DNA of 64,000 bases from Acidimicrobiia bacterium. Its GTDB lineage: Bacteria > Actinomycetota > Acidimicrobiia > IMCC26256 > PALSA-610. The notes beneath the pieces are model-generated. The model made no database searches, was not told where the DNA came from, and saw nothing but the letters and a program-made list of their open reading frames with translations. A program made the translations under genes and the position numbers. The number at the start of each line of letters is the position of its first letter. Positions within the stretch are counted from its first letter, which is position 1. Below are positions 25,807 to 55,163 of this stretch, one piece after another. The stretch covers positions 15,528 through 79,527 of the forward strand of contig JBBREP010000004.1 of NCBI GenBank assembly GCA_038202885.1, given 5' to 3'.

Positions 25807-26064
25807 GGTTCCCACCTTGTGTGAGCAAAACATCGGCGGGCCTACGCGCGTGCCCAATGGCACATTCGACCTGGTCCATTCGGTTGACGTATTGACGCTG
25901 CGGGCAGGTGTGCTCAGGATCAGCCCGACAACAAACCCCGCGGCTGGCAGCAGTTCCAGTGTGGACGAGGTGTTGATTCGCAGGCGTGAACTGGTCGCCT
26001 GAGCCTGCGGGGAGCCAGTGGCGAAACCGGCGTCCGGCCGCACAACTGGAACAGGAGCATCATC

Positions 26065-36840: not shown

Positions 36841-36862
36841 GCCTTGTGCGTATTGCCCCGCG

Positions 36863-36908
36863 CCGGACGTGCAAGCCGGACGTGCAAGCCGGACGTGCAA
36901 GCCGGGGG
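36863..36908. repeat. 13-nt tandem repeat (ccggacgtgcaag) x 3.5 in the intergenic region
   Basis: Reads cgccGGACGTGCAAGccGGACGTGCAAGccGGACGTGCAAGccggggg, between the glycosylase stop (36840) and the ATG at 36985. Confidence 0.8.
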
Positions 36909-36984: not shown

Positions 36985-38103
36985 ATGAACCCACGTAAGA
37001 CCGGCACCGCCATGGTGCTTGCTGGCGCCGCGACGCAAGCCGTCGGAATGCTGTGGGAGGCGATCCGTCGTTCGGGCGCGTCGGCCAAGAGCACCGACCT
37101 GTTCGACCTCGGTGTCGCGGCCCACGCGCTGTTCTTCGCCGGCATCGCAGTGGTGGTGCTCGGCGCGGCGATGATGTTCCTCGGCCCCATCCTCTACGCG
37201 CCGGGCGCGCAACCAGGCCGGCGCTTCGCGCAATTGCTCGCGCCCGTCGTCGCGTTCGCTGGCATCGCGGGTTGCGCGTCGGCTGCCGATCGGTCGGCAA
37301 CTCCGATCGCCGTGCGCGCAGCAAACAGCAGCGGCAAGCTGGCCGCAGGCGCTCCCGCAGCGTCGGTGGCAAGTCCACCCACGACCGCGCACGTGCACGA
37401 TCACGGCTCGATCATCGCCGGTACGGGCGTGGGCGATTCGCCCTGCGAGAAGGCGTCGGTGAAGCCGGCCTCCCCAGGAGAGGTTGGCGACGGCACCGGC
37501 GGCGCCGCGAGCAACACCGATGCCGAAGGTGGCCACGGTCACCGCGGCATGCTCAAGCAGACGCCGTTGACGACCGCCGAACGCAAGTTGCTGATCACCC
37601 AGATGCAACAGGCGCGTAGCGTCGTTGCGAAGTATCCGACAGTCGCGGCCGGCGAGGCTGCGGGCTACCGACAGTCGACGGTCTTCGTGCCGTGCATCGG
37701 TGCGCACTACACGAACATGAAGCTCGTCACGCGCTTCGATCCTGCCGCGCCGTCGGAGTTGTTGTTCGACGGCACCTCGCCTGATTCCAAGATCGTCGGA
37801 CTCAGCTATCTCGTGTGGCACCCGGGTGGTCCGCCGGAGGGCTTCGCCGGCAAGAACGACCTGTTCCACCAGCACAACGCGAACGGCGGCCTGTGCTTGA
37901 AGGGTGGGCTGGTCATCGGCGGCGAAGCAATGAAGGTGTCCGACTGTGAGAAAGCTGGCGGCAAGAAGTCGTCGAAGCTCATGGCCGACGTCTACATGGC
38001 GCACGCCTGGGTTGCTCCCGGGTGGGAGTGCAGTTGGGGCGTGTTCGCAGGAGAGTGTCCCGAACTCGGCGGCAAACTCGGCGGCACCGCCTTCGATAAC
38101 TAG
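36985..38103 (+). CDS. membrane-anchored His/Cys-rich protein of unknown function
   Basis: ATG after GGGGGA. Three N-terminal TM helices, then 'HVHDHGS', 'GGHGHRG' and several Cys pairs ('WECSWGVFAGECPE'). Confidence 0.5.
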   Translation: MNPRKTGTAMVLAGAATQAVGMLWEAIRRSGASAKSTDLFDLGVAAHALFFAGIAVVVLGAAMMFLGPILYAPGAQPGRRFAQLLAPVVAFAGIAGCASAADRSATPIAVRAANSSGKLAAGAPAASVASPPTTAHVHDHGSIIAGTGVGDSPCEKASVKPASPGEVGDGTGGAASNTDAEGGHGHRGMLKQTPLTTAERKLLITQMQQARSVVAKYPTVAAGEAAGYRQSTVFVPCIGAHYTNMKLVTRFDPAAPSELLFDGTSPDSKIVGLSYLVWHPGGPPEGFAGKNDLFHQHNANGGLCLKGGLVIGGEAMKVSDCEKAGGKKSSKLMADVYMAHAWVAPGWECSWGVFAGECPELGGKLGGTAFDN

Positions 38104-43834: not shown

Positions 43835-45301
43835 TCACCGGGCACCCACCGCGAGCACGTCGTCGATGCCGCCCCGCAGGTCGCTGAGCATGGCCTCGCC
43901 GTCGGGAATGGCAGCGGTGTCGCTGACCACGCCGACGCAGCAGGTGTCGACGTGCGACAGCAGCGTCACGTTCACGGCCGCGCCCGACGGTGGCCCGAAC
44001 GCGTAGAGCCGCTCGACTTTGGCGCCGCCGAGATACACCGGCACCGGGGCTCCAGGAACGTTCGAGGTCACGAAATCGACGCACTTCAACATGCCGCCGA
44101 ACAGGGCTGTTGTGGTCGATGTGGGTAGGCGGTTGAGCACGCCGGCCAACGTACCGGTAAGGCCGAGCGCGGGCTCGTGGCGCCACTCGCGCACGAGTGC
44201 ACCGACAGCCTGCATCCGTTCGATTGGGTCGGTGATGCTCGCTGGTACCGCGAAACGCGCTGGTGCAAAGTGATTCCCGCCCGCGGTGCTGCCTTCGTTG
44301 CGGAGGTTGATGGGCATCGTCATGCGCAGCTCGTCGACGGGGGAGCCGTGGCGCTCGTGATAGCTGGAGAGGCCGCCAATCACGCCAGCGACAAACGCGT
44401 CGTTCAAGCTGCGCTGGGCCTTCTTTGCGGCGCGTTTCAAGTCGTCGAGGGAGATGTCGAACGCGTCGAGGCGACGGCCCATCCCGCGCCGGGTCATCAA
44501 CGGCGACATTGGTGCGCTCGCGGGCGCGATGGCGCGGCCGATCGAGCGTGCGGTGTCGACCGCGCGCACTGCACTGCCGAAGGGGTCGCGTGCCGCGCTC
44601 GTGATCGTGTCGAGTGCGCCCGTGGGTACTCGACGGCCGATCCCCATCCAGCGCCGCGTGGTGTGCGCCACCGAGTCGAGTACGAGGTCGCCGCTTCCCA
44701 TCGGTTCGGCGTGTGGCGCGGCGACGAAATCACGCGCCTTGGCGACGCCCGGCGCCAGGTCGACGAGCTGCGCGAGCAGCTCGACGCCGCCCACGCCGTC
44801 AGTGACGGAGTGGTGCACCTTCATGATCATCGCGGCGCGCCCGTCGGCGAGGCCATCGAGCACGATCGTTTCCCACAGTGGGCGGGCCCGGTCGAAGCTC
44901 GATTGTGCGAGCGGACCCAGGAAGTCGAGGAGTTGTCTATCGTTACCGGGTGGCGGCAGCACCATGTGGCGCAGGTGATAGTCGATGTCGAAGTTCGATT
45001 CGACGGCCCAGCGCGGTGGACCGATGCGCATCGGGGGCGTGAGCACGCGCTGGCGCAGCCGCGGAATCGTGACGCTCGCGTGTTCGTACCGGCGACGCAG
45101 CCGCGCGAAGTCGGGCGCGTGATCAAGGATGGCGACCGCGAGGATCGTGGAGCGCAGGATCGGGTCCTTTTCGATGTTCCACATCAGCGCGTCGGCATCG
45201 CTCATGTGTCGATCGAATTGGGCCCCGCTGCCAATGTCAGGCATCGCCGGACCCGATGATTCCTGCGCGGGTTCGCGCTGGGGAGGTGCGACGTCGCTCA
45301 C
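43835..45301 (-). CDS. wax ester synthase / diacylglycerol acyltransferase (WS/DGAT)
   Basis: Catalytic 'HHSVTDGVGG' (HHxxxDG), ~480 aa. Confidence 0.8.
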   Translation of the reverse strand: MSDVAPPQREPAQESSGPAMPDIGSGAQFDRHMSDADALMWNIEKDPILRSTILAVAILDHAPDFARLRRRYEHASVTIPRLRQRVLTPPMRIGPPRWAVESNFDIDYHLRHMVLPPPGNDRQLLDFLGPLAQSSFDRARPLWETIVLDGLADGRAAMIMKVHHSVTDGVGGVELLAQLVDLAPGVAKARDFVAAPHAEPMGSGDLVLDSVAHTTRRWMGIGRRVPTGALDTITSAARDPFGSAVRAVDTARSIGRAIAPASAPMSPLMTRRGMGRRLDAFDISLDDLKRAAKKAQRSLNDAFVAGVIGGLSSYHERHGSPVDELRMTMPINLRNEGSTAGGNHFAPARFAVPASITDPIERMQAVGALVREWRHEPALGLTGTLAGVLNRLPTSTTTALFGGMLKCVDFVTSNVPGAPVPVYLGGAKVERLYAFGPPSGAAVNVTLLSHVDTCCVGVVSDTAAIPDGEAMLSDLRGGIDDVLAVGAR

Positions 45302-45359
45302 ACTGCCACGCTACCCACGGTCGCAAGCCCGCAGTCCGCGAGCGCGAGGTCGTGGAGCG

Positions 45360-45466
45360 GGCGAGCGGGGGTGCAGCGAAGGAGCCCTTGGGGGCGCGAG
45401 CCGAAGGCGAGCGGGGGTGCAGCGAAGGAGCCCTTGGGGGCGCGAGCCGAGGGCGAGCGGGGGTGG
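45360..45466. repeat. GC-rich 46-nt tandem repeat (2.3 copies) in a divergent promoter region
   Basis: Unit ggcgagcgggggtgcagcgaaggagcccttgggggcgcgagccgaa, in two full copies plus 15 nt. A related copy lies at 48541..48590 (reverse). Confidence 0.8.
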
Positions 45467-45489
45467 ACAGGCAGTTAGCGTGCCGGGCC

Positions 45490-46371
45490 ATGCGAGAGCG
45501 CTACGTGGTTGCCAATGGGATGCGCCTCTACTGCCTTGAAGCGGGCGATCCCAGTGATCCGTTGGTGTTGCTGTGCCACGGCTTCCCTGAACTGGCGCTG
45601 TCGTGGCGACACCAAATCGACACGCTCGCGGCACTCGGCTATCACGTCGTCGCGCCCGATATGCCGGGTTACGGACGCTCCGACAAGCCCGATGTGGCCT
45701 ACGACGTCGTGTTCCTGAACGGCACGCTTGCCGCGCTCGTCCGGGCGCTCGGCCACCACCGGTGTGTGATCGCGGGCCACGACTGGGGTGGGATCCTCGT
45801 GTGGCATTTCGCGCGGATGTTTCCCGACATCACTGCGGGTGTGGTCGGAGTGAACACCCCGGACCTGCCACGGCCGCCGATTCCGCCCGTCGAGTTGCTG
45901 CGGTCGATCTTCGTCGACACCCCGATCTACATCATTCAGTTCCAAGAACCCGGCCTGGCCGAGTGGGTGTTGTCGTGGGGGCGTGGCGCGGATGACTTCA
46001 TCGAGATGATCTTCCTCAACGAGATGTTGCGAAATCGCGAGGCGTTCCCACCCGAAATACTCGAGCAGTACAAGCAGGCCTTTCGACCCGCTGGCGCGTT
46101 GACACCGCCGATCGAGTACTACCGCAACATGGATCGCAACTGGGAGCTGTCGGCGGCGTGGGCCGATCGCACGATCGACGTGCCGTGCCTCATGATCTCG
46201 GCGGCCGACGACCCGGTGCTCACCCCCGCGATGACGATCGGTATGGAGGAACGGGTACCGACGCTCATGCGGGTGGTGATCGACGATTGTGGTCACTGGA
46301 CGCAACAGGAACGTCCCGAACAGACAAACGCAGCGTTCGCCCAGTATCTCGCCACGCTCGAGCGTTGGTGA
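45490..46371 (+). CDS. alpha/beta hydrolase (epoxide-hydrolase/haloalkane-dehalogenase-like)
   Basis: 'LLCHGFPELALSWRHQ', nucleophile elbow 'GHDWGG', 'DMPGYGRSD'. ATG at 45490. The upstream in-frame extension consists of repeat sequence. Confidence 0.85.
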   Translation: MRERYVVANGMRLYCLEAGDPSDPLVLLCHGFPELALSWRHQIDTLAALGYHVVAPDMPGYGRSDKPDVAYDVVFLNGTLAALVRALGHHRCVIAGHDWGGILVWHFARMFPDITAGVVGVNTPDLPRPPIPPVELLRSIFVDTPIYIIQFQEPGLAEWVLSWGRGADDFIEMIFLNEMLRNREAFPPEILEQYKQAFRPAGALTPPIEYYRNMDRNWELSAAWADRTIDVPCLMISAADDPVLTPAMTIGMEERVPTLMRVVIDDCGHWTQQERPEQTNAAFAQYLATLERW

Positions 46372-46405
46372 GCACCCACCGAAGCGAGCGTTACGCTTCG
46401 GCGTG

Positions 46406-46753
46406 ATGGACAAGCTCAAGGCCGTGTGCGGGTGCGGCGTGCATCATTCGACGCCGGCGTGGATGTGGCTGCTCGTGGTCGGCGCGGCCATTGCCGCGAT
46501 GGCAGTGTCGCCACTGCTGCGCCGGTCCGTCCGCCGGCACGGGTTTGGGGCTCGCGGCGAACGCAGCGCCGCGCAGCGCGCCAACATCGTCGTGTGCGGG
46601 GCGACCTTCGTGGTGTGTGCAGCAATCGGTTGGCGACTCGTGCTCGTGGCCGCGGTGTTCGTCGCGGCGATCATCGGTCGTGCCGTAACACTTGGCGCAC
46701 GCGAACACGCCGAGGATCGCGCTCAGGCGCCGAAGCGGGTGCCCAGCGCGTAG
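46406..46753 (+). CDS. small membrane protein (hypothetical)
   Basis: 115 aa with two TM helices. Follows a hairpin at 46379..46401. Low support. Confidence 0.35.
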   Translation: MDKLKAVCGCGVHHSTPAWMWLLVVGAAIAAMAVSPLLRRSVRRHGFGARGERSAAQRANIVVCGATFVVCAAIGWRLVLVAAVFVAAIIGRAVTLGAREHAEDRAQAPKRVPSA

Positions 46754-47778
46754 CAATCGAGCGCCGTTTCTCCCATGACGGCGTCGAGCGCCGTCGCGTC
46801 GAGCGAGGGGTTCTCGTGCAGGAACTCTTCGACGGCGTCGGGAAACGCCGCGTCGGGATGCGGAAAGTCGCTCGCCCACAGCACGTGGTCTGCGCCAACC
46901 GTCTCCACCGTGCGCCCCACGAGGTGGTCTTCGGGATCACACGAGATCACACATTGACGCGCGAAGTACTCCGACGCCGACAGCGACAAGTGCTTCGTAT
47001 CGGAGTCGCGCATCCACGCGATGTGATCATCGAGACGCGCCAGCCAGTAGGGGAGCCACCCGGTGCCGGACTCGAGGAATGCCACCCGCATCGCGGGATG
47101 ACGCTCGAGCGCGCCGTCGAGCACCAGACTCGTCATTGCGGCCATCTGCTCCATCGGATGCGAGCACAAGTGGCGGGCGGTGAAGCCAGAGAAACGATCG
47201 GCACCGATGGTGGGGCCACCCTGTACGCCGAGGCCCTCATGCACCGCGAGCACCAGACCCGTGGCTTCGAGTTCGTCATACAGCGGATCGAAGAACGGGT
47301 CGCCGAGGTTGCGGCCGTACATGAAGTTCGGCCGGACCATCATGGCGACGAGCCCGAGCCCATGGACGCGTGACGCCTCTCGCGCTGCGGCCAGCGGATC
47401 GAGCGTGCACGCGATACCCGCGCCGGCGAGTCGGTCCGGCGCGTGCGCGCAGTACTGCGCGATCCAGTCGTTGTAACCGCGGCAGGCTGCGACCTGGTCG
47501 TCGGCGGTCAGGTCGGCCTGGAACGGCACGAACAGTCCGACCGATGGGTACAGCACGGCGGCGTCGATACCCTGCGCGTTCATCGCGTGGAGATACGACG
47601 GCGCATTCCAACCCTGGTCCCACTGTTCTGTGAGATCGGCGCCACCGCACGCTTCGAACGGCGTGTTGGGCGAGATCGTGATCGGGTTGTGATCGGCGCG
47701 GTGTGCCGCGCCGAAGATGCCGCCCGGTTCGATCACGTGACCGTCACCGTCGACGACGAGACGGGGGCGTCGCGTCAC
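46723..47778 (-). CDS. amidohydrolase-2 family hydrolase
   Basis: 'MRVAFLESGTGWLPYWLARLD', 'HVLWASDFPHPD' C-terminal motif. A GTG start at 47778 overlaps the upstream SDR stop. Confidence 0.75.
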   Translation of the reverse strand: MTRRPRLVVDGDGHVIEPGGIFGAAHRADHNPITISPNTPFEACGGADLTEQWDQGWNAPSYLHAMNAQGIDAAVLYPSVGLFVPFQADLTADDQVAACRGYNDWIAQYCAHAPDRLAGAGIACTLDPLAAAREASRVHGLGLVAMMVRPNFMYGRNLGDPFFDPLYDELEATGLVLAVHEGLGVQGGPTIGADRFSGFTARHLCSHPMEQMAAMTSLVLDGALERHPAMRVAFLESGTGWLPYWLARLDDHIAWMRDSDTKHLSLSASEYFARQCVISCDPEDHLVGRTVETVGADHVLWASDFPHPDAAFPDAVEEFLHENPSLDATALDAVMGETALDCYALGTRFGA

Positions 47779-48539
47779 GGCCGGCGTGCGGCGAGACCGC
47801 CGTCGAGCGGAATCACCGCGCCTGAGATGTAGGCCGCGCTTGGCGAACACAGGAATGCGATCGTGTCGGCCACCTCCGACGCAGTCCCGAGCCTGCGCAT
47901 CGGCGAGTTGCTCGTCACCATGTCGATGATGCGCTGCGGATCTCCGGTGCTCTTTGCCATCTGCATGAACAGCCCGGCGTCGGTCGCCGACGGTGACACC
48001 ACGTTCACCCGCACACCCTCGGCGGCGTGCTCGATCGCGGCTTGTTTTGCGAGGTTGTTGAGCGCGCCCTTCGATGCGCAGTACGCGGCGTACCCGGGTG
48101 ACCCAATCGCACCCAACACCGATCCGAGCAGCACGACCGCACCTCCGCCGCTCGTCGCGATGTGCGGTATCGCGTGCTTCATGCAGAGGAACGGACCTTT
48201 GAGGTTCACATCGAGCACGCGTTGCCAATCGTCATCACTGCAGTCGACAGCCGCGGCGCGCACTTCGATGGCCGCACTGCACACGAGGATGTCGATGCGT
48301 CCGTGACGCTCGACGACGGCGTCGACCATCGCGGCGACCTCGCCCTCGTCGGTGACATCGACCGTCTCGGCCTCCACGGGAAGGCCGGACGCGCGCAGGT
48401 TGTCGGCGACCTGTTGCCCGCCGCGCTCATTGATGTCGGCAACGATCACGATGGCTTTGTCGGCTGCGAGCCGGCGCACGGTCGCCTCACCGAGGCCGGC
48501 GGCACCGCCCGTGACGATGGCAACGCTCTGTATGTTCAC
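47775..48539 (-). CDS. SDR-family oxidoreductase
   Basis: 'VAIVTGGAAGLGEA' motif. The GTG start at 48539 is preceded by GGGGGTGGAG, which is part of the GC-rich repeat. Confidence 0.8.
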   Translation of the reverse strand: MNIQSVAIVTGGAAGLGEATVRRLAADKAIVIVADINERGGQQVADNLRASGLPVEAETVDVTDEGEVAAMVDAVVERHGRIDILVCSAAIEVRAAAVDCSDDDWQRVLDVNLKGPFLCMKHAIPHIATSGGGAVVLLGSVLGAIGSPGYAAYCASKGALNNLAKQAAIEHAAEGVRVNVVSPSATDAGLFMQMAKSTGDPQRIIDMVTSNSPMRRLGTASEVADTIAFLCSPSAAYISGAVIPLDGGLAARRP

Positions 48540-48540
48540 T

Positions 48541-48590
48541 CTCCACCCCCGCTCGCCGTCGGCTCGCGCCCCCAGGGGCTCTCGGGCACC
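48541..48590 (-). repeat. single copy of the GC-rich 46-nt motif in the SDR-SDR intercistronic spacer
   Basis: The reverse complement reads ggtgcccgagagcccctgggggcgcgagccgacggcgagcgggggtggag, about 85% identical to the 45360 unit. Confidence 0.7.
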
Positions 48591-48591
48591 G

Positions 48592-49365
48592 TCATCGCAG
48601 CGCCGCCAGGCCGCCGTCGACGGGGATGATCGCGCCGCTCGTGTACGCCGAGCGATCGCTTGCGAGGAACAGTGCAGTCGCTGCGATGTCGTCGGTGGTG
48701 CCGAGTCGGCGCAGCGGCATGTTCGCCGTGAGCATGCGCAGGAATCCGTCGGCGTCGGCCGTCTCGTCGAGCACCTTGCGAAAGCGCGGCGTGTCGATCG
48801 AACCCGGCGCGATGACGTTTGCCCGCACGACGGGCCCGTACTCGGTGGCAAGCTGTTTCGTGAGCGCCACGAGTCCGGCCTTGGCCGCGCCGTACGCGGC
48901 GTACCCATCGCTGCCGATCAGACCGAGCGTGGACGCGGTGTTGATGATCGACCCCGCGCCGCTCTCGAGCATCGCAGGGATCGCAGCGCGGCACGCCCAG
49001 AAGATGGCCGAAAGGTTCGTGGCGATCGTGAGATCCCATTGCGCTTCGCTGCACTCGACGAGTCGCCCCGACATCTGCACCGCAGCGTTGTTGTAGAGAA
49101 CATCGAGCCGTCCGAAACGATCCAACACGGCGCGCACCATCTCGTCACAATCGGCGCGGAGCGACACGTCGGCGTGCACTGCGAAGGCCTCACCGCCGAT
49201 CGCTTCGACCTCGGCGATCGTGGTGCGAGCACCGGTGTCATCGATGTCGATCACTCCGATGCGAGCACCATGGCGCGCGAACAACAGCGCGGCGGCGCGG
49301 CCCTGACCTGAGCCGGAGCCCGTGATCAGCGCGACCTTGCCATCGAGCCACCGTTCCTCGGGCAC
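48592..49365 (-). CDS. SDR-family oxidoreductase
   Basis: 'GKVALITGSGSGQGRA', 257 aa. Confidence 0.85.
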   Translation of the reverse strand: MPEERWLDGKVALITGSGSGQGRAAALLFARHGARIGVIDIDDTGARTTIAEVEAIGGEAFAVHADVSLRADCDEMVRAVLDRFGRLDVLYNNAAVQMSGRLVECSEAQWDLTIATNLSAIFWACRAAIPAMLESGAGSIINTASTLGLIGSDGYAAYGAAKAGLVALTKQLATEYGPVVRANVIAPGSIDTPRFRKVLDETADADGFLRMLTANMPLRRLGTTDDIAATALFLASDRSAYTSGAIIPVDGGLAALR

Positions 49366-53209: not shown

Positions 53210-53365
53210 GTGGCCGACATCGTGTATCTCGCTGTGATCGTCGCCTTCTTCGCGCTGTGCGTCGCGTTCGTGCGCGCGTGCGATCGCATCATCGGGCCCG
53301 ACGAGCTCGCGCCCTTGATCCCAGCCGACGGCGACGATGCCGGCGCGAGCGAGGTGGCCGCGTGA
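53210..53365 (+). CDS. candidate 51-aa membrane micro-protein upstream of kdpF
   Basis: GTG after GAGGAG, '[23 protein letters not shown]' TM helix plus acidic tail. The TGA stop overlaps the GTG start of kdpF (GTGA). Confidence 0.35.
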
Positions 53366-53451: not shown

Positions 53452-55163
53452 TGGCCGGCTGGCTGCAGCTCCTCCTGATCGTCGCGCTGCTCGCGGTCTC
53501 GATCCCGCTGATCGGTGCGTACCTCGCGAAGGTCTACGGCAACGGCCGTGCACCTGGCGATCGCGTGTTCCTGCCCGTCGAACGGGCGATCTTCCGTGTG
53601 TGCGGTGTCGATCCCGAGCGTGAGCAGCGGTGGAACGTCTACACGCTGTCGTTGCTCGCGTTCAGCGCGGTGTCATTGCTCGTGTTGTACGCGCAGCTCC
53701 GACTCCAGCACTACTTACCGTTCAACGCCGATCACCAGAAGAACGTCCCCGCGGGTCTGTCGTTCAACACGTCGGTGAGCTTCCTCACGAACACCAACTG
53801 GCAGAACTACTCGGGTGAGTCGACGATGAGCCATCTCACCCAGATGAGCGGGCTCGCGTTCCACAACTTCGTGTCGGCCGCGGCCGGTGCTGCCGTCGCC
53901 GTCGCGCTGATTCGCGGCCTCACGCGTACGCGCTCGGCAACCATTGGCAACTTCTGGGCTGATCTTGTGCGCACGTGCACGCGCGTGCTGCTGCCGTTGT
54001 CGTTCGCGTTCGCGCTCGTGCTGGTGAGCCAGGGCGCGATCCAGAACTTCCACGCGGCCCGTCCGGTCACGACCGTGACGGGTCAGACCCAGACCATTCC
54101 CGGCGGTCCGATCGCCAGCCAAGAGGCCATCAAGGAGATCGGCGAGAACGGCGGCGGGCCGTTCAACGCCAACGCGTCGCATCCGTTCGAGAATCCGAAC
54201 GGGGTCACGAACGTGCTCGAGATTTGGCTGTTGCTTGCCATTCCGTTCGCGTTCCCATTCGCCTTCGGTCGGATGGCCGGCAGCGCCAGGCAGGGCTGGG
54301 TCGTGTTCGCCGCGATGTTCCTGCTGTGGTTCGGCGCGTCGGCCGCGGCGATGACGTTCGAGACTCGAGGCAGTCCAAAGATCGCGACGGCAGGGGTGAG
54401 CCAACAGACCACCGCCGCGCAGTCGGGCGGCGGCAACCTCGAAGGGAAAGAGACCCGGTTCGGGGCGGCGGGGTGCGGCGTGTTCGCGGCGAGCACAACC
54501 GGCACCTCGACGGGATCGGTCGATTGCATGCATGACAGCATGACGCCGCTCGGCGGTGGCGTGACGATCGTCAACATCATGCTCGGGGAGGTGAGTCCCG
54601 GCGGCGCCGGCTCGGGTATGTACGGGATGCTCGTGTTCGCACTGCTGAGTGTGTTCATCGCCGGTCTGATGGTCGGGCGCACACCGGAGTACCTCGGCAA
54701 GAAGATCCAGGCCGCCGAGATGAAGCTCGTCGTGCTCTACATCCTCGTTGTGCCGCTCGCGATCCTCACGTTCAGCGCGATTTCGGTGGTGTTGCACAGC
54801 GCGCAATCCTCGCTCCTCAACGCGGGGCCTCACGGCCTCAGCGAGATGACGTATGCGTTCACGAGTGCGGCGAACAACAACGGCTCGGCCTTTGGCGGGC
54901 TCTCGGGTAACACGCAGTGGTTCAACACCACGCTTGGCCTGTGCATGCTGGTCGGGCGGTATCTGCTGATGATCCCGGTGTTGGCGATCGCAGGCTCGCT
55001 CGCTCGCAAGCAACCGGTCCCGCCCTCCGCGGGCACGTTCCCCACCGGCACGCCGCTGTTCTCTGCGTTGCTCGGCGGCGTGGTGATCATCGTCGTCGGT
55101 TTGACGTTCTTCCCCGTTGTGGCGCTCGGCCCCGTGGTCGAGCACCTCGTCGGCAAGTTCTGA
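53451..55163 (+). CDS. kdpA: K+-transporting ATPase subunit A
   Basis: '[29 protein letters not shown]', ~570 aa, 10 TM helices. Confidence 0.9.

Follow-up and report, generated by a model that had tools for sequence, protein, structure and literature searches.

A probable REP/MIRU-like interspersed repeat at two intergenic sites of an Acidimicrobiia contig

Introduction

Two kinds of described repeats resemble the element reported here. MIRU elements (Supply et al. 1997, as summarized in PMC3184786) are units of 40-100 bp that occur singly or in short tandem arrays in the intercistronic spacers of operons. Their description in PMC3184786 also includes filled and empty sites, short direct repeats, and an internal ORF that overlaps the flanking stop and start codons. 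REP and BIME elements are short, GC-rich, imperfect palindromes, which fold as single strands, are extragenic, and are often located just 3' of genes (Nunvar 2010; Bertels and Rainey 2011, PMC3116915). They are present as monomers, inverted doublets, and mosaics, and a position between inward-facing inverted copies is the hallmark of RAYT genes.

In this study, a motif with a 46-nt unit was analyzed in the window, that is, the whole stretch of 64,000 nucleotides under consideration; the view of the source genome consisted of two loci within these 64 kb. The motif is probably a small, non-coding, structured interspersed repeat of the REP/MIRU kind, which was inserted at two intergenic sites, and not an ancestral regulatory site. 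The label that fits it best is REP/MIRU-like repeat.

Repeat Units in the Window

Tandem Repeats Finder reported a head-to-tail array at 45360-45465(+) with a period of 46, 2.3 copies, 98% matches, and a score of 205, in agreement with a preliminary description of this DNA, which had placed a tandem 46-nt motif of 2.3 copies at 45360. The related single copy seen there near 48541-48590 was also recovered, and its extent was determined as 48540-48591(-). The units and their core hairpins (HP2) are listed below.

45360..45373, plus strand: leading partial unit of 14 nt, GGCGAGCGGGGGTG (start of the Tandem Repeats Finder array and 14-mer match)
45374..45419, plus strand: full unit 1, CAGCGAAGGAGCCCTTGGGGGC-GCGAGCCGAAGGCGAGC-GGGGGTG, phased like the single copy (covariance model, 45.5 bits, E=1.2e-6)
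45396-45412, plus strand: HP2 of unit 1, loop GAA
45420..45465, plus strand: full unit 2, terminus 24 nt 5' of the hydrolase ATG 45490 (covariance model, 41.4 bits, E=6.2e-6)
45442-45458, plus strand: HP2 of unit 2, loop GAG in place of GAA
48540..48591, minus strand: single copy, which makes up the entire SDR1-SDR2 intercistronic spacer of 52 nt (covariance model, 44.1 bits, E=2.1e-6)
48551-48567, minus strand: HP2 of the single copy, loop GAC

The third loop base (GAA, GAG, GAC) is the sole difference among the HP2 hairpins of the three units. The 30-mer GGGGGCGCGAGCCGANGGCGAGCGGGGGTG was found three times, at 45390-45419(+), 45436-45465(+), and 48544-48573(-), with 0 occurrences expected from 100 dinucleotide shuffles, and the 14-mer GGCGAGCGGGGGTG occurred 4 times against 0.08 expected. 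As had been remarked earlier, both sites close with the same sequence shortly 5' of a start codon; this terminus is GCGAGCGGGGGTGGA, and it stands 4 nt from GTG 48539 and 24 nt from ATG 45490.

An nhmmer profile search over the 64 kb yielded no copies beyond the array and the single copy. The covariance model, run over the whole window with filters off, returned the three units alone (E about 1e-6) and, directly adjoining the array, a weak match of degenerate sequence (45315-45378, 11.2 bits, E=1.5), which is weakly in favor of an extra unit. The partial unit at 45360-45373 could represent the 3' terminus of a third, degenerate unit spanning 45315-45373, but a local alignment of the stretch 5' of the array did not rise above background and gave such a unit no support. 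Inverted partner arms were sought in and near the window copies, and none were found. The array at the hydrolase site probably arose through tandem amplification, in which the 14-nt direct repeats would have allowed slippage or unequal exchange.

The repeat unit consists of 52% G, and the window has about 66% G+C. On the sense strand, five G5 tracts, 18 nt apart, are present in the array, and two are present in the single copy. Such a composition and spacing would suit a G-rich leader that acts through a G-quadruplex or is the target of a C-rich-loop small RNA (6C-type) of Actinobacteria. However, a spacing of 18 nt makes for long quadruplex loops, only two G5 runs are present in the single copy, and no 6C RNA was found in the window. 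Moreover, the G-runs of the family take part in covarying Watson-Crick hairpins. A function of this type was judged very improbable.

Other features of the window were also recorded. A perfect 13-nt tandem repeat, GCCGGACGTGCAA, is present in 3.4 copies with 100% matches at 36862-36905(+); it is intergenic and begins 22 nt past the stop of an ORF that extends to 36840, with the next start near 36986. A pair of imperfect tandem repeats (21-24 nt, 2.4-2.6 copies, 69-81% matches) is located at 53230-53287 and 53638-53694 (+), within about 500 nt. In addition, 25957-26041(+) matched the c-di-GMP-II-GAG riboswitch aptamer (RF03169, gathering score 40) with 57.7 bits and E=8e-9.

Neighboring Genes and the Hydrolase Start

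The genes next to the two sites are as follows.

43835..45205, minus strand: WS/DGAT acyltransferase, divergent from the hydrolase (Pfam WS_DGAT_cat, 6.8e-53)
45490..46371, plus strand: alpha/beta hydrolase, 3' of the tandem array (Pfam Abhydrolase_1, 6.2e-31)
47775..48539, minus strand: SDR2, directly 3' of the single copy, GTG start at 48539-48537 (Pfam adh_short_C2, 2e-61)
48592..49365, minus strand: SDR1, directly 5' of the single copy (Pfam adh_short_C2, 4e-62)

The array is situated in the spacer between the divergent WS/DGAT and hydrolase genes, in the leader or promoter region. The gene next after SDR2 matched Amidohydro_2 in Pfam. A public protein 100% identical to SDR2 is available (P0001, 254 aa), and the closest named relatives of SDR2 are proteins of Acidimicrobiia MAGs. 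The G-rich strand is sense with respect to the downstream gene at the array as well as at the single copy. At 47642-47775(-), where the SDR2 stop meets the amidohydrolase start, the radC RNA motif scored 25.3 bits (E=0.053), below its gathering score of 40; this match is probably due to chance.

A long open frame, 45256-46371, runs through the repeat into the hydrolase, and the repeat could in principle be translated as an N-terminal extension of the enzyme. The frame is open from 45256, and all sense frames of the element are free of stop codons; however, an A/T-poor composition by itself predicts such openness. The period of 46 nt is no multiple of 3, so each unit would be read in another frame. 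For the hydrolase orthologue of the related locus L123, the called start is a GTG in exact alignment with ATG 45490, and the two proteins share the N-terminus (M)RERYVVANG. Therefore, the ORF from 45256 was regarded as an artefact, as had been suspected at the outset, and translation of the repeat with the hydrolase is hardly credible. The hydrolase ORF of 371 aa should be trimmed to start at 45490.

Filled and Empty Sites in Relatives

The SDR1/SDR2 junction was compared with that of four relatives, which show 80-84% protein identity. In all four, P0007 (L123-L125), P0006, P0002, and P0004 (L127), the SDR1 and SDR2 calls overlap by 4 nt (ATGA), and the element is absent from the junction in 4/4. 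The L123 locus is fully syntenic with the window and contains the thioesterase, SDR1, SDR2, amidohydrolase, hydrolase, and WS/DGAT genes, while the P0006 contig is syntenic from the thioesterase to the amidohydrolase. The element was sought in the whole L123 locus of ~10.8 kb and in the L124-L127 loci, and none was found. Between its hydrolase and WS/DGAT genes, L123 has a shorter spacer without the element; in the alignment, this spacer was too diverged between the window and L123 to fix the insertion point of the array. Because no element was present at the SDR junction of the four relatives or at the hydrolase site of L123, the element was interpreted as a lineage-specific insertion.

The junction DNA reads CTGCGATGAGT in L123 and CTGCGATGAATGGG in L127. 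In the window, CTGCGATGA is followed by a 56-nt insert ending in GTGA and then by ACATACAG. The SDR2 of L127 begins with MN, and the window SDR2 likewise begins with (M)NIQS. Since both proteins start in this way, the simplest history would be an insertion into an ancestral CGATGAAC junction, with TGA left on either side. The flanks TGA...TGA represent a possible 3-nt target-site duplication that is too short to be decisive, and nothing clear was seen beyond them. P0005 was also considered, as its longer N-terminus might have hidden a related insert; with a contig start 86 nt upstream and a different context there, it was uninformative.

These comparisons bear on the earlier proposal of a shared 5'-UTR or cis-regulatory element, in which an RNA leader or an operator would place the hydrolase and SDR-amidohydrolase genes in one regulon. 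The two copies have the same orientation with respect to the downstream gene, and their termini are near a start codon, which favors the proposal. However, the SDR1/SDR2 junction of the four relatives lacks the element, as do the hydrolase spacer and the whole locus of the syntenic L123. Furthermore, the distance to the start differs (4 nt vs 24 nt), and one of the sites is intercistronic: the single copy fills the 52-nt spacer between SDR1 and SDR2 and is not the 5'-UTR element that had been supposed. A common regulon is quite unlikely, and the two catabolic-looking units should not be joined into one on this motif. The alternative offered with that proposal, a REP-like repeat with tandem expansion, is supported. 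For the window itself, the result is mostly corrective.

Ribosome Binding and a Relay ORF at the Single Copy

Two features at the single copy concern the translation of SDR2.

48540..48550, minus strand: element-borne Shine-Dalgarno (SD)-like sequence, GGGGGTGGAGA, in which GGGGGTG ends 4 nt before the SDR2 GTG (anti-SD duplex of -15.3 kcal/mol)
48536..48595, minus strand: putative relay ORF of 19 codons, MTVPESPWGREPTASGGGE and a stop (translation of the sequence; use predicted)

As the window does not contain a 16S gene, the anti-SD sequence was assumed from a generic 16S 3' tail. With this tail, the 20 nt before GTG 48539, ACGGCGAGCGGGGGTGGAGA, gave a duplex of -15.3 kcal/mol. The 20-mers of the window gave a mean of -4.8 and a 1st percentile of -12.7 kcal/mol, so the GGGGGTGGAGA region is beyond the latter; neighboring starts, including the hydrolase ATG, gave -1 to -5 kcal/mol. 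For the hydrolase ATG 45490, no SD was found within 20 nt (-2.5 kcal/mol), and the SD-like sequence of the array, 24 nt from this ATG, is too far to serve as one. Accordingly, the earlier suggestion that the 3' end of the motif doubles as an SD stands for the SDR gene at 48539 (-15.3 kcal/mol, 4 nt) and falls for the hydrolase (24 nt).

The insert split the ancestral 4-nt ATGA stop/start overlap of SDR1 and SDR2. The ancestral ATG was retained in its overlap with the SDR1 stop (ATGA) and now opens the 19-codon ORF, which terminates in a TGA shared with the GTG start of SDR2 (GTGA). As read from the sequence, the stop/start chain ATGA...GTGA is kept through the insert, although such chaining could be due to chance in roughly 0.1-0.3 of cases. 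Most likely, SDR2 expression was kept by the strong SD GGGGGTGGAGA at the 3' end of the element, and the short ORF most likely relays ribosomes from ATGA to GTGA. The single copy is thus a clear case, found in nature, of a stop/start overlap disrupted by an insertion, and the insertion appears to be tolerated because of its own strong ribosome-binding site and the relay ORF.

Fold and Covariation of the Repeat Family

The HP2 core hairpin has the form 5'-GC-GA-GCC-GAN-GGC-GA-GC-3', in which a triloop is closed by three G-C pairs, followed outward by a tandem G.A pair and two further G-C pairs. G5 runs flank the hairpin, and a short C-run/G-run hairpin (HP1) is located 5' of it; HP1 comprises about 4 bp in the window copies. 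Compared with shuffled sequence, the window copies folded no better (z = +0.7 to +1.7), while the commonest metagenome form (class 1, described below) and the copy of locus L001 folded better than shuffles (z = -2.3 for the class-1 consensus and z = -2.4 for L001). Among the matches listed, a hairpin of >=7 bp was located directly 5' of the core in 64/106 unique upstream flanks vs 4% of controls, with several distinct stem sequences in use.

A covariation analysis, which had been proposed along with the preliminary description, was conducted on 44 distinct copies, the window units among them, which were aligned and scored against the two-hairpin structure. Compensatory changes were found in both the core and the upstream hairpins across the family: 93% of cells were paired, six pairs showed double changes, and 0/500 shuffles equaled this result. 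When the partner column was slid by 1-3 positions, pairing fell to 36-57%. In the same 44-copy alignment, HP2 pair 32-46 was C-G in 34 copies, U-A in 5, and U.G in 4, and the tandem G.A was invariant. In some copies, the inner stem was wholly replaced with the GCGA...GAGC frame kept, for example GCGA-CCCCCGCG-TA-CGCGGGGG-GAGC. Because of the U.G intermediates, the G-rich strand was taken as the folding strand, either as RNA or as single-stranded DNA.

A search of 44800-49200 against Rfam with E up to 10 gave no match overlapping the elements, and none was obtained at the elements at gathering score in the window and 20 related loci; a dimer gave sub-threshold hairpin-like matches alone. No intrinsic terminator (hairpin plus U-tract) was found in 45100-45600, and the window units end in GGGGGTG without a T-run. 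That no Rfam family matched and that the window copies fold no better than shuffles both speak further against the regulon proposal.

Copies in Other Genomes and Metagenomes

One genome per species was scanned, covering 185,579 species genomes, with the pattern GCGAGCCGANGGCGAGCGGGGGT, which is the 5-G form of the core and left out the 6-G class-1 form. The 5-G core was present at two loci, L001 and L002. Because only these two matches were obtained among 185,579 species genomes, the window-type 5-G variant is rare among sequenced genomes.

L002 belongs to an unrelated Acidimicrobiia MAG, in which GGAGCCCTTCGGGGCGCGAGCCGAAGGCGAGCGGGGGTGAAG lies between a DUF192-like gene and rsmI. The element, at L002:5775-5831(-), is inside the sole open frame leading into rsmI, with its G-rich strand sense and directly after a co-oriented gene. 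The frame into rsmI is opened by a GTG that shares bases with the stop codon of the DUF192-like gene before it. Either the element is translated as an N-terminal extension (containing SPSGREPKASGGE, in the frame of the window relay ORF), or the rsmI start is non-canonical. The orientation of this copy agrees with that of the window copies and favors the regulon proposal, but its position inside the sole open frame into rsmI does not, and in other phyla the core is found beside many unrelated genes. At the three Acidimicrobiia-type sites, the G-rich strand is sense and just 5' of a gene in 3/3, a number that leaves room for a selected role in expression.

L001 is a Minisyncoccia (CPR) MAG with an identical core. 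Its copy, L001:6779-6818(+), is a perfect hairpin, CCCGC-GA-GCC-GAA-GGC-GA-GCGGG, in a lower-G+C stretch, and GGTTGTGCTGTT follows it. This copy may represent a terminator; alternatively, the contig may have been mis-binned.

A metagenome sample selected by the exact 21-nt core comprised at least 120 contigs with this core, mostly from soil. Among the contigs listed, the core was combined with differing flanking modules. The commonest form among the matches listed, class 1, is GACCCCCTGAYAAGGGGGTC-core-GGTTGGTTTT, and its copies occurred as monomers, tandem arrays (L089, L120), and inverted dimers. The loop of the inverted dimers was about 20 nt (L006, L018, L030, L066, L098, L103, L104). In L014, L093, and L120, a second palindromic repeat, AAATCGGGGTCAGA(G/C)CCCGATTT, adjoins class-1 copies, which suggests mosaic repeat clusters of the BIME type. 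Other conserved flanks lack the C-run/G-run hairpin: one ends in CGTCACGTTTAGCC-core-AAC (L013, L020, L042, L046, L049, L073, L116, L117), and another is TAACGGACCAA.GG..CGCTTGC-core (L010, L075, L080), each with the exact 21-nt core. Since the exact core stands behind such other conserved flanks, it was considered a module common to different repeat types.

A plasmid collection was searched by blastn with the class-1 consensus and the window array without a match, viral contigs did not contain the exact core, and a literature search on the core sequence returned nothing relevant. Within the family, variation of the inner stem is tolerated, and yet this stem is identical across phyla; such identity would point to horizontal spread and not to convergence.

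The orientation of class-1 copies was compared with that of the upstream gene. Among the matches listed, the upstream flank was coding in the orientation of the copy in 45 cases and in the reverse orientation in 7, as judged with a strand caller (GC3>GC1>GC2 rule) that was 85% correct on known window genes and was used for this orientation count alone. The bias could reflect a REP-like RNA that acts after transcription, by protecting the upstream cistron from 3'-exonucleases or by attenuating read-through, and so tunes the SDR1:SDR2 ratio. The U.G wobble intermediates, which mark the G-rich strand as the folding strand, are consistent with such an RNA, as is the location of the window single copy and the L002 copy directly after a co-oriented gene. 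However, the window copies are no more stable than shuffles, the window sites lack a hairpin-plus-U-tract terminator, and a divergent gene lies 5' of the tandem copy. Moreover, the 45:7 count depends on a strand caller of about 85% accuracy, and recognition as single-stranded DNA would explain the covariation equally well. Such a role at SDR1-SDR2 was considered unlikely. The same doubt applies to a 3'-end element across the wider family, a role that would be compatible with a mobile repeat.

DUF559 Nuclease Genes between Inverted Copies

A 120-aa DUF559 gene (PF04480, E=4.3e-30) adjoins the core in 26 metagenome loci among those listed. Its bracketing was counted with the class-1 profile in units with both sides on the contig among the metagenome matches listed, and inward-facing class-1 copies (plus on the left, minus on the right) surrounded the gene in 24/24. 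One arm per unit had been chosen by the search pattern, and the other arm was free of that selection. The copies are located 5-100 nt from the DUF559 gene and are at times tandemly multiplied. In 17 units, nucleotide identity was 72% for the ORFs and 88-90% for the arms across units, with 96% for the arms within a unit. The units are about 540 bp long with 50-nt two-hairpin arms (L032:3375-3883, L025, L057, L058, L119, L017, L035, L106, and others). The short inverted dimers resemble a DUF559 unit minus the gene. Close named DUF559 homologues belong to Burkholderiales MAGs.

No DUF559 gene was present in the window, L001, L002, or L123-L125, and no RAYT or transposase match was found next to window-type elements. 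In the literature searched, DUF559 was described as Vsr-like or homing-endonuclease-like only, and no description of the flanking-repeat arrangement was found.

As a tentative extension of the REP/MIRU-like reading, the window element may be a solo member of an undescribed cross-phylum family of folded repeats, each composed of HP1 and a GCGA-stem-GAGC hairpin with the invariant tandem G.A, the master units of which would be the ~540-bp DUF559 units. The nuclease would recognize the G.A hairpin and propagate or preserve the repeats, with transfer between Proteobacteria and Actinobacteriota as one of the routes. The DUF559-type nuclease is only a candidate for the mover of the element.

An exact hairpin module of 21-30 nt is common to Actinobacteriota, Proteobacteria-like soil contigs, and a CPR MAG. 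The covarying module, together with the strict DUF559 arrangement, provides a testable handle on the common, uncharacterised DUF559 nucleases. The DUF559 link is an interesting lead, and this wider result is of more potential value than that of the window.

Comparison with Known Repeat Systems

The element resembles MIRU in its 46-nt unit, which is present as the 2.3-copy array at 45360-45465 and one copy at 48540-48591. The single copy is also MIRU-like in its intercistronic position and in the arrangement ATGA...19 codons...GTGA, whereas the tandem site is unlike MIRU in lying between divergent genes. The filled window site contrasts with the 4-nt overlap in the four relatives, and the TGA...TGA flanks recall the short direct repeats of MIRU but are too short to decide. 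The present host is Acidimicrobiia-like and not Mycobacterium, and the comparison was made by description. The element here also differs from MIRU in its two-hairpin architecture, its tandem G.A, and its relatives in other phyla. Because the nearest named relatives of the window genes belong to Acidimicrobiia MAGs, MIRU membership by descent is unlikely.

As a small, non-autonomous insert that lacks stops in every frame and permits read-through, as in L002, the element also has likeness to MITEs and to RPE-type repeats, which can insert within or beside genes and carry no stop codons. The short inverted dimers of the metagenomes add to this likeness. Unlike MITEs, the window copies carry neither terminal inverted repeats nor a clear target-site duplication.

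The likeness to REP lies, for the family as a whole, in copies that fold as a single strand, are extragenic and often just 3' of genes, and occur as monomers, inverted dimers, and mosaics with other modules. REPs number tens to hundreds of extragenic copies per genome; the 64 kb considered here contain two loci. The palindromic trait is seen at the family level as compensatory changes; the window copies keep HP2 and an HP1 of 4 bp and fold no better than shuffles. In contrast to REPs, in which a GTAG tetranucleotide is conserved at the 5' end, GTAG is absent from all window units and from the class-1 consensus, and the core is identical across phyla, while REPs are normally species-specific. 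The window also differs in having neither a nuclease gene nor doublets. In the metagenome relatives, a small nuclease gene between inward-facing inverted copies resembles the REPIN-RAYT arrangement, but the bracketed gene is DUF559 (PD-(D/E)XK, Vsr-like) and not a Y1 (IS200-like) transposase. If the proposed role of DUF559 is true, it would represent a REPIN-RAYT-like partnership built on a mismatch-type endonuclease and a second REP-nuclease pairing besides RAYTs.
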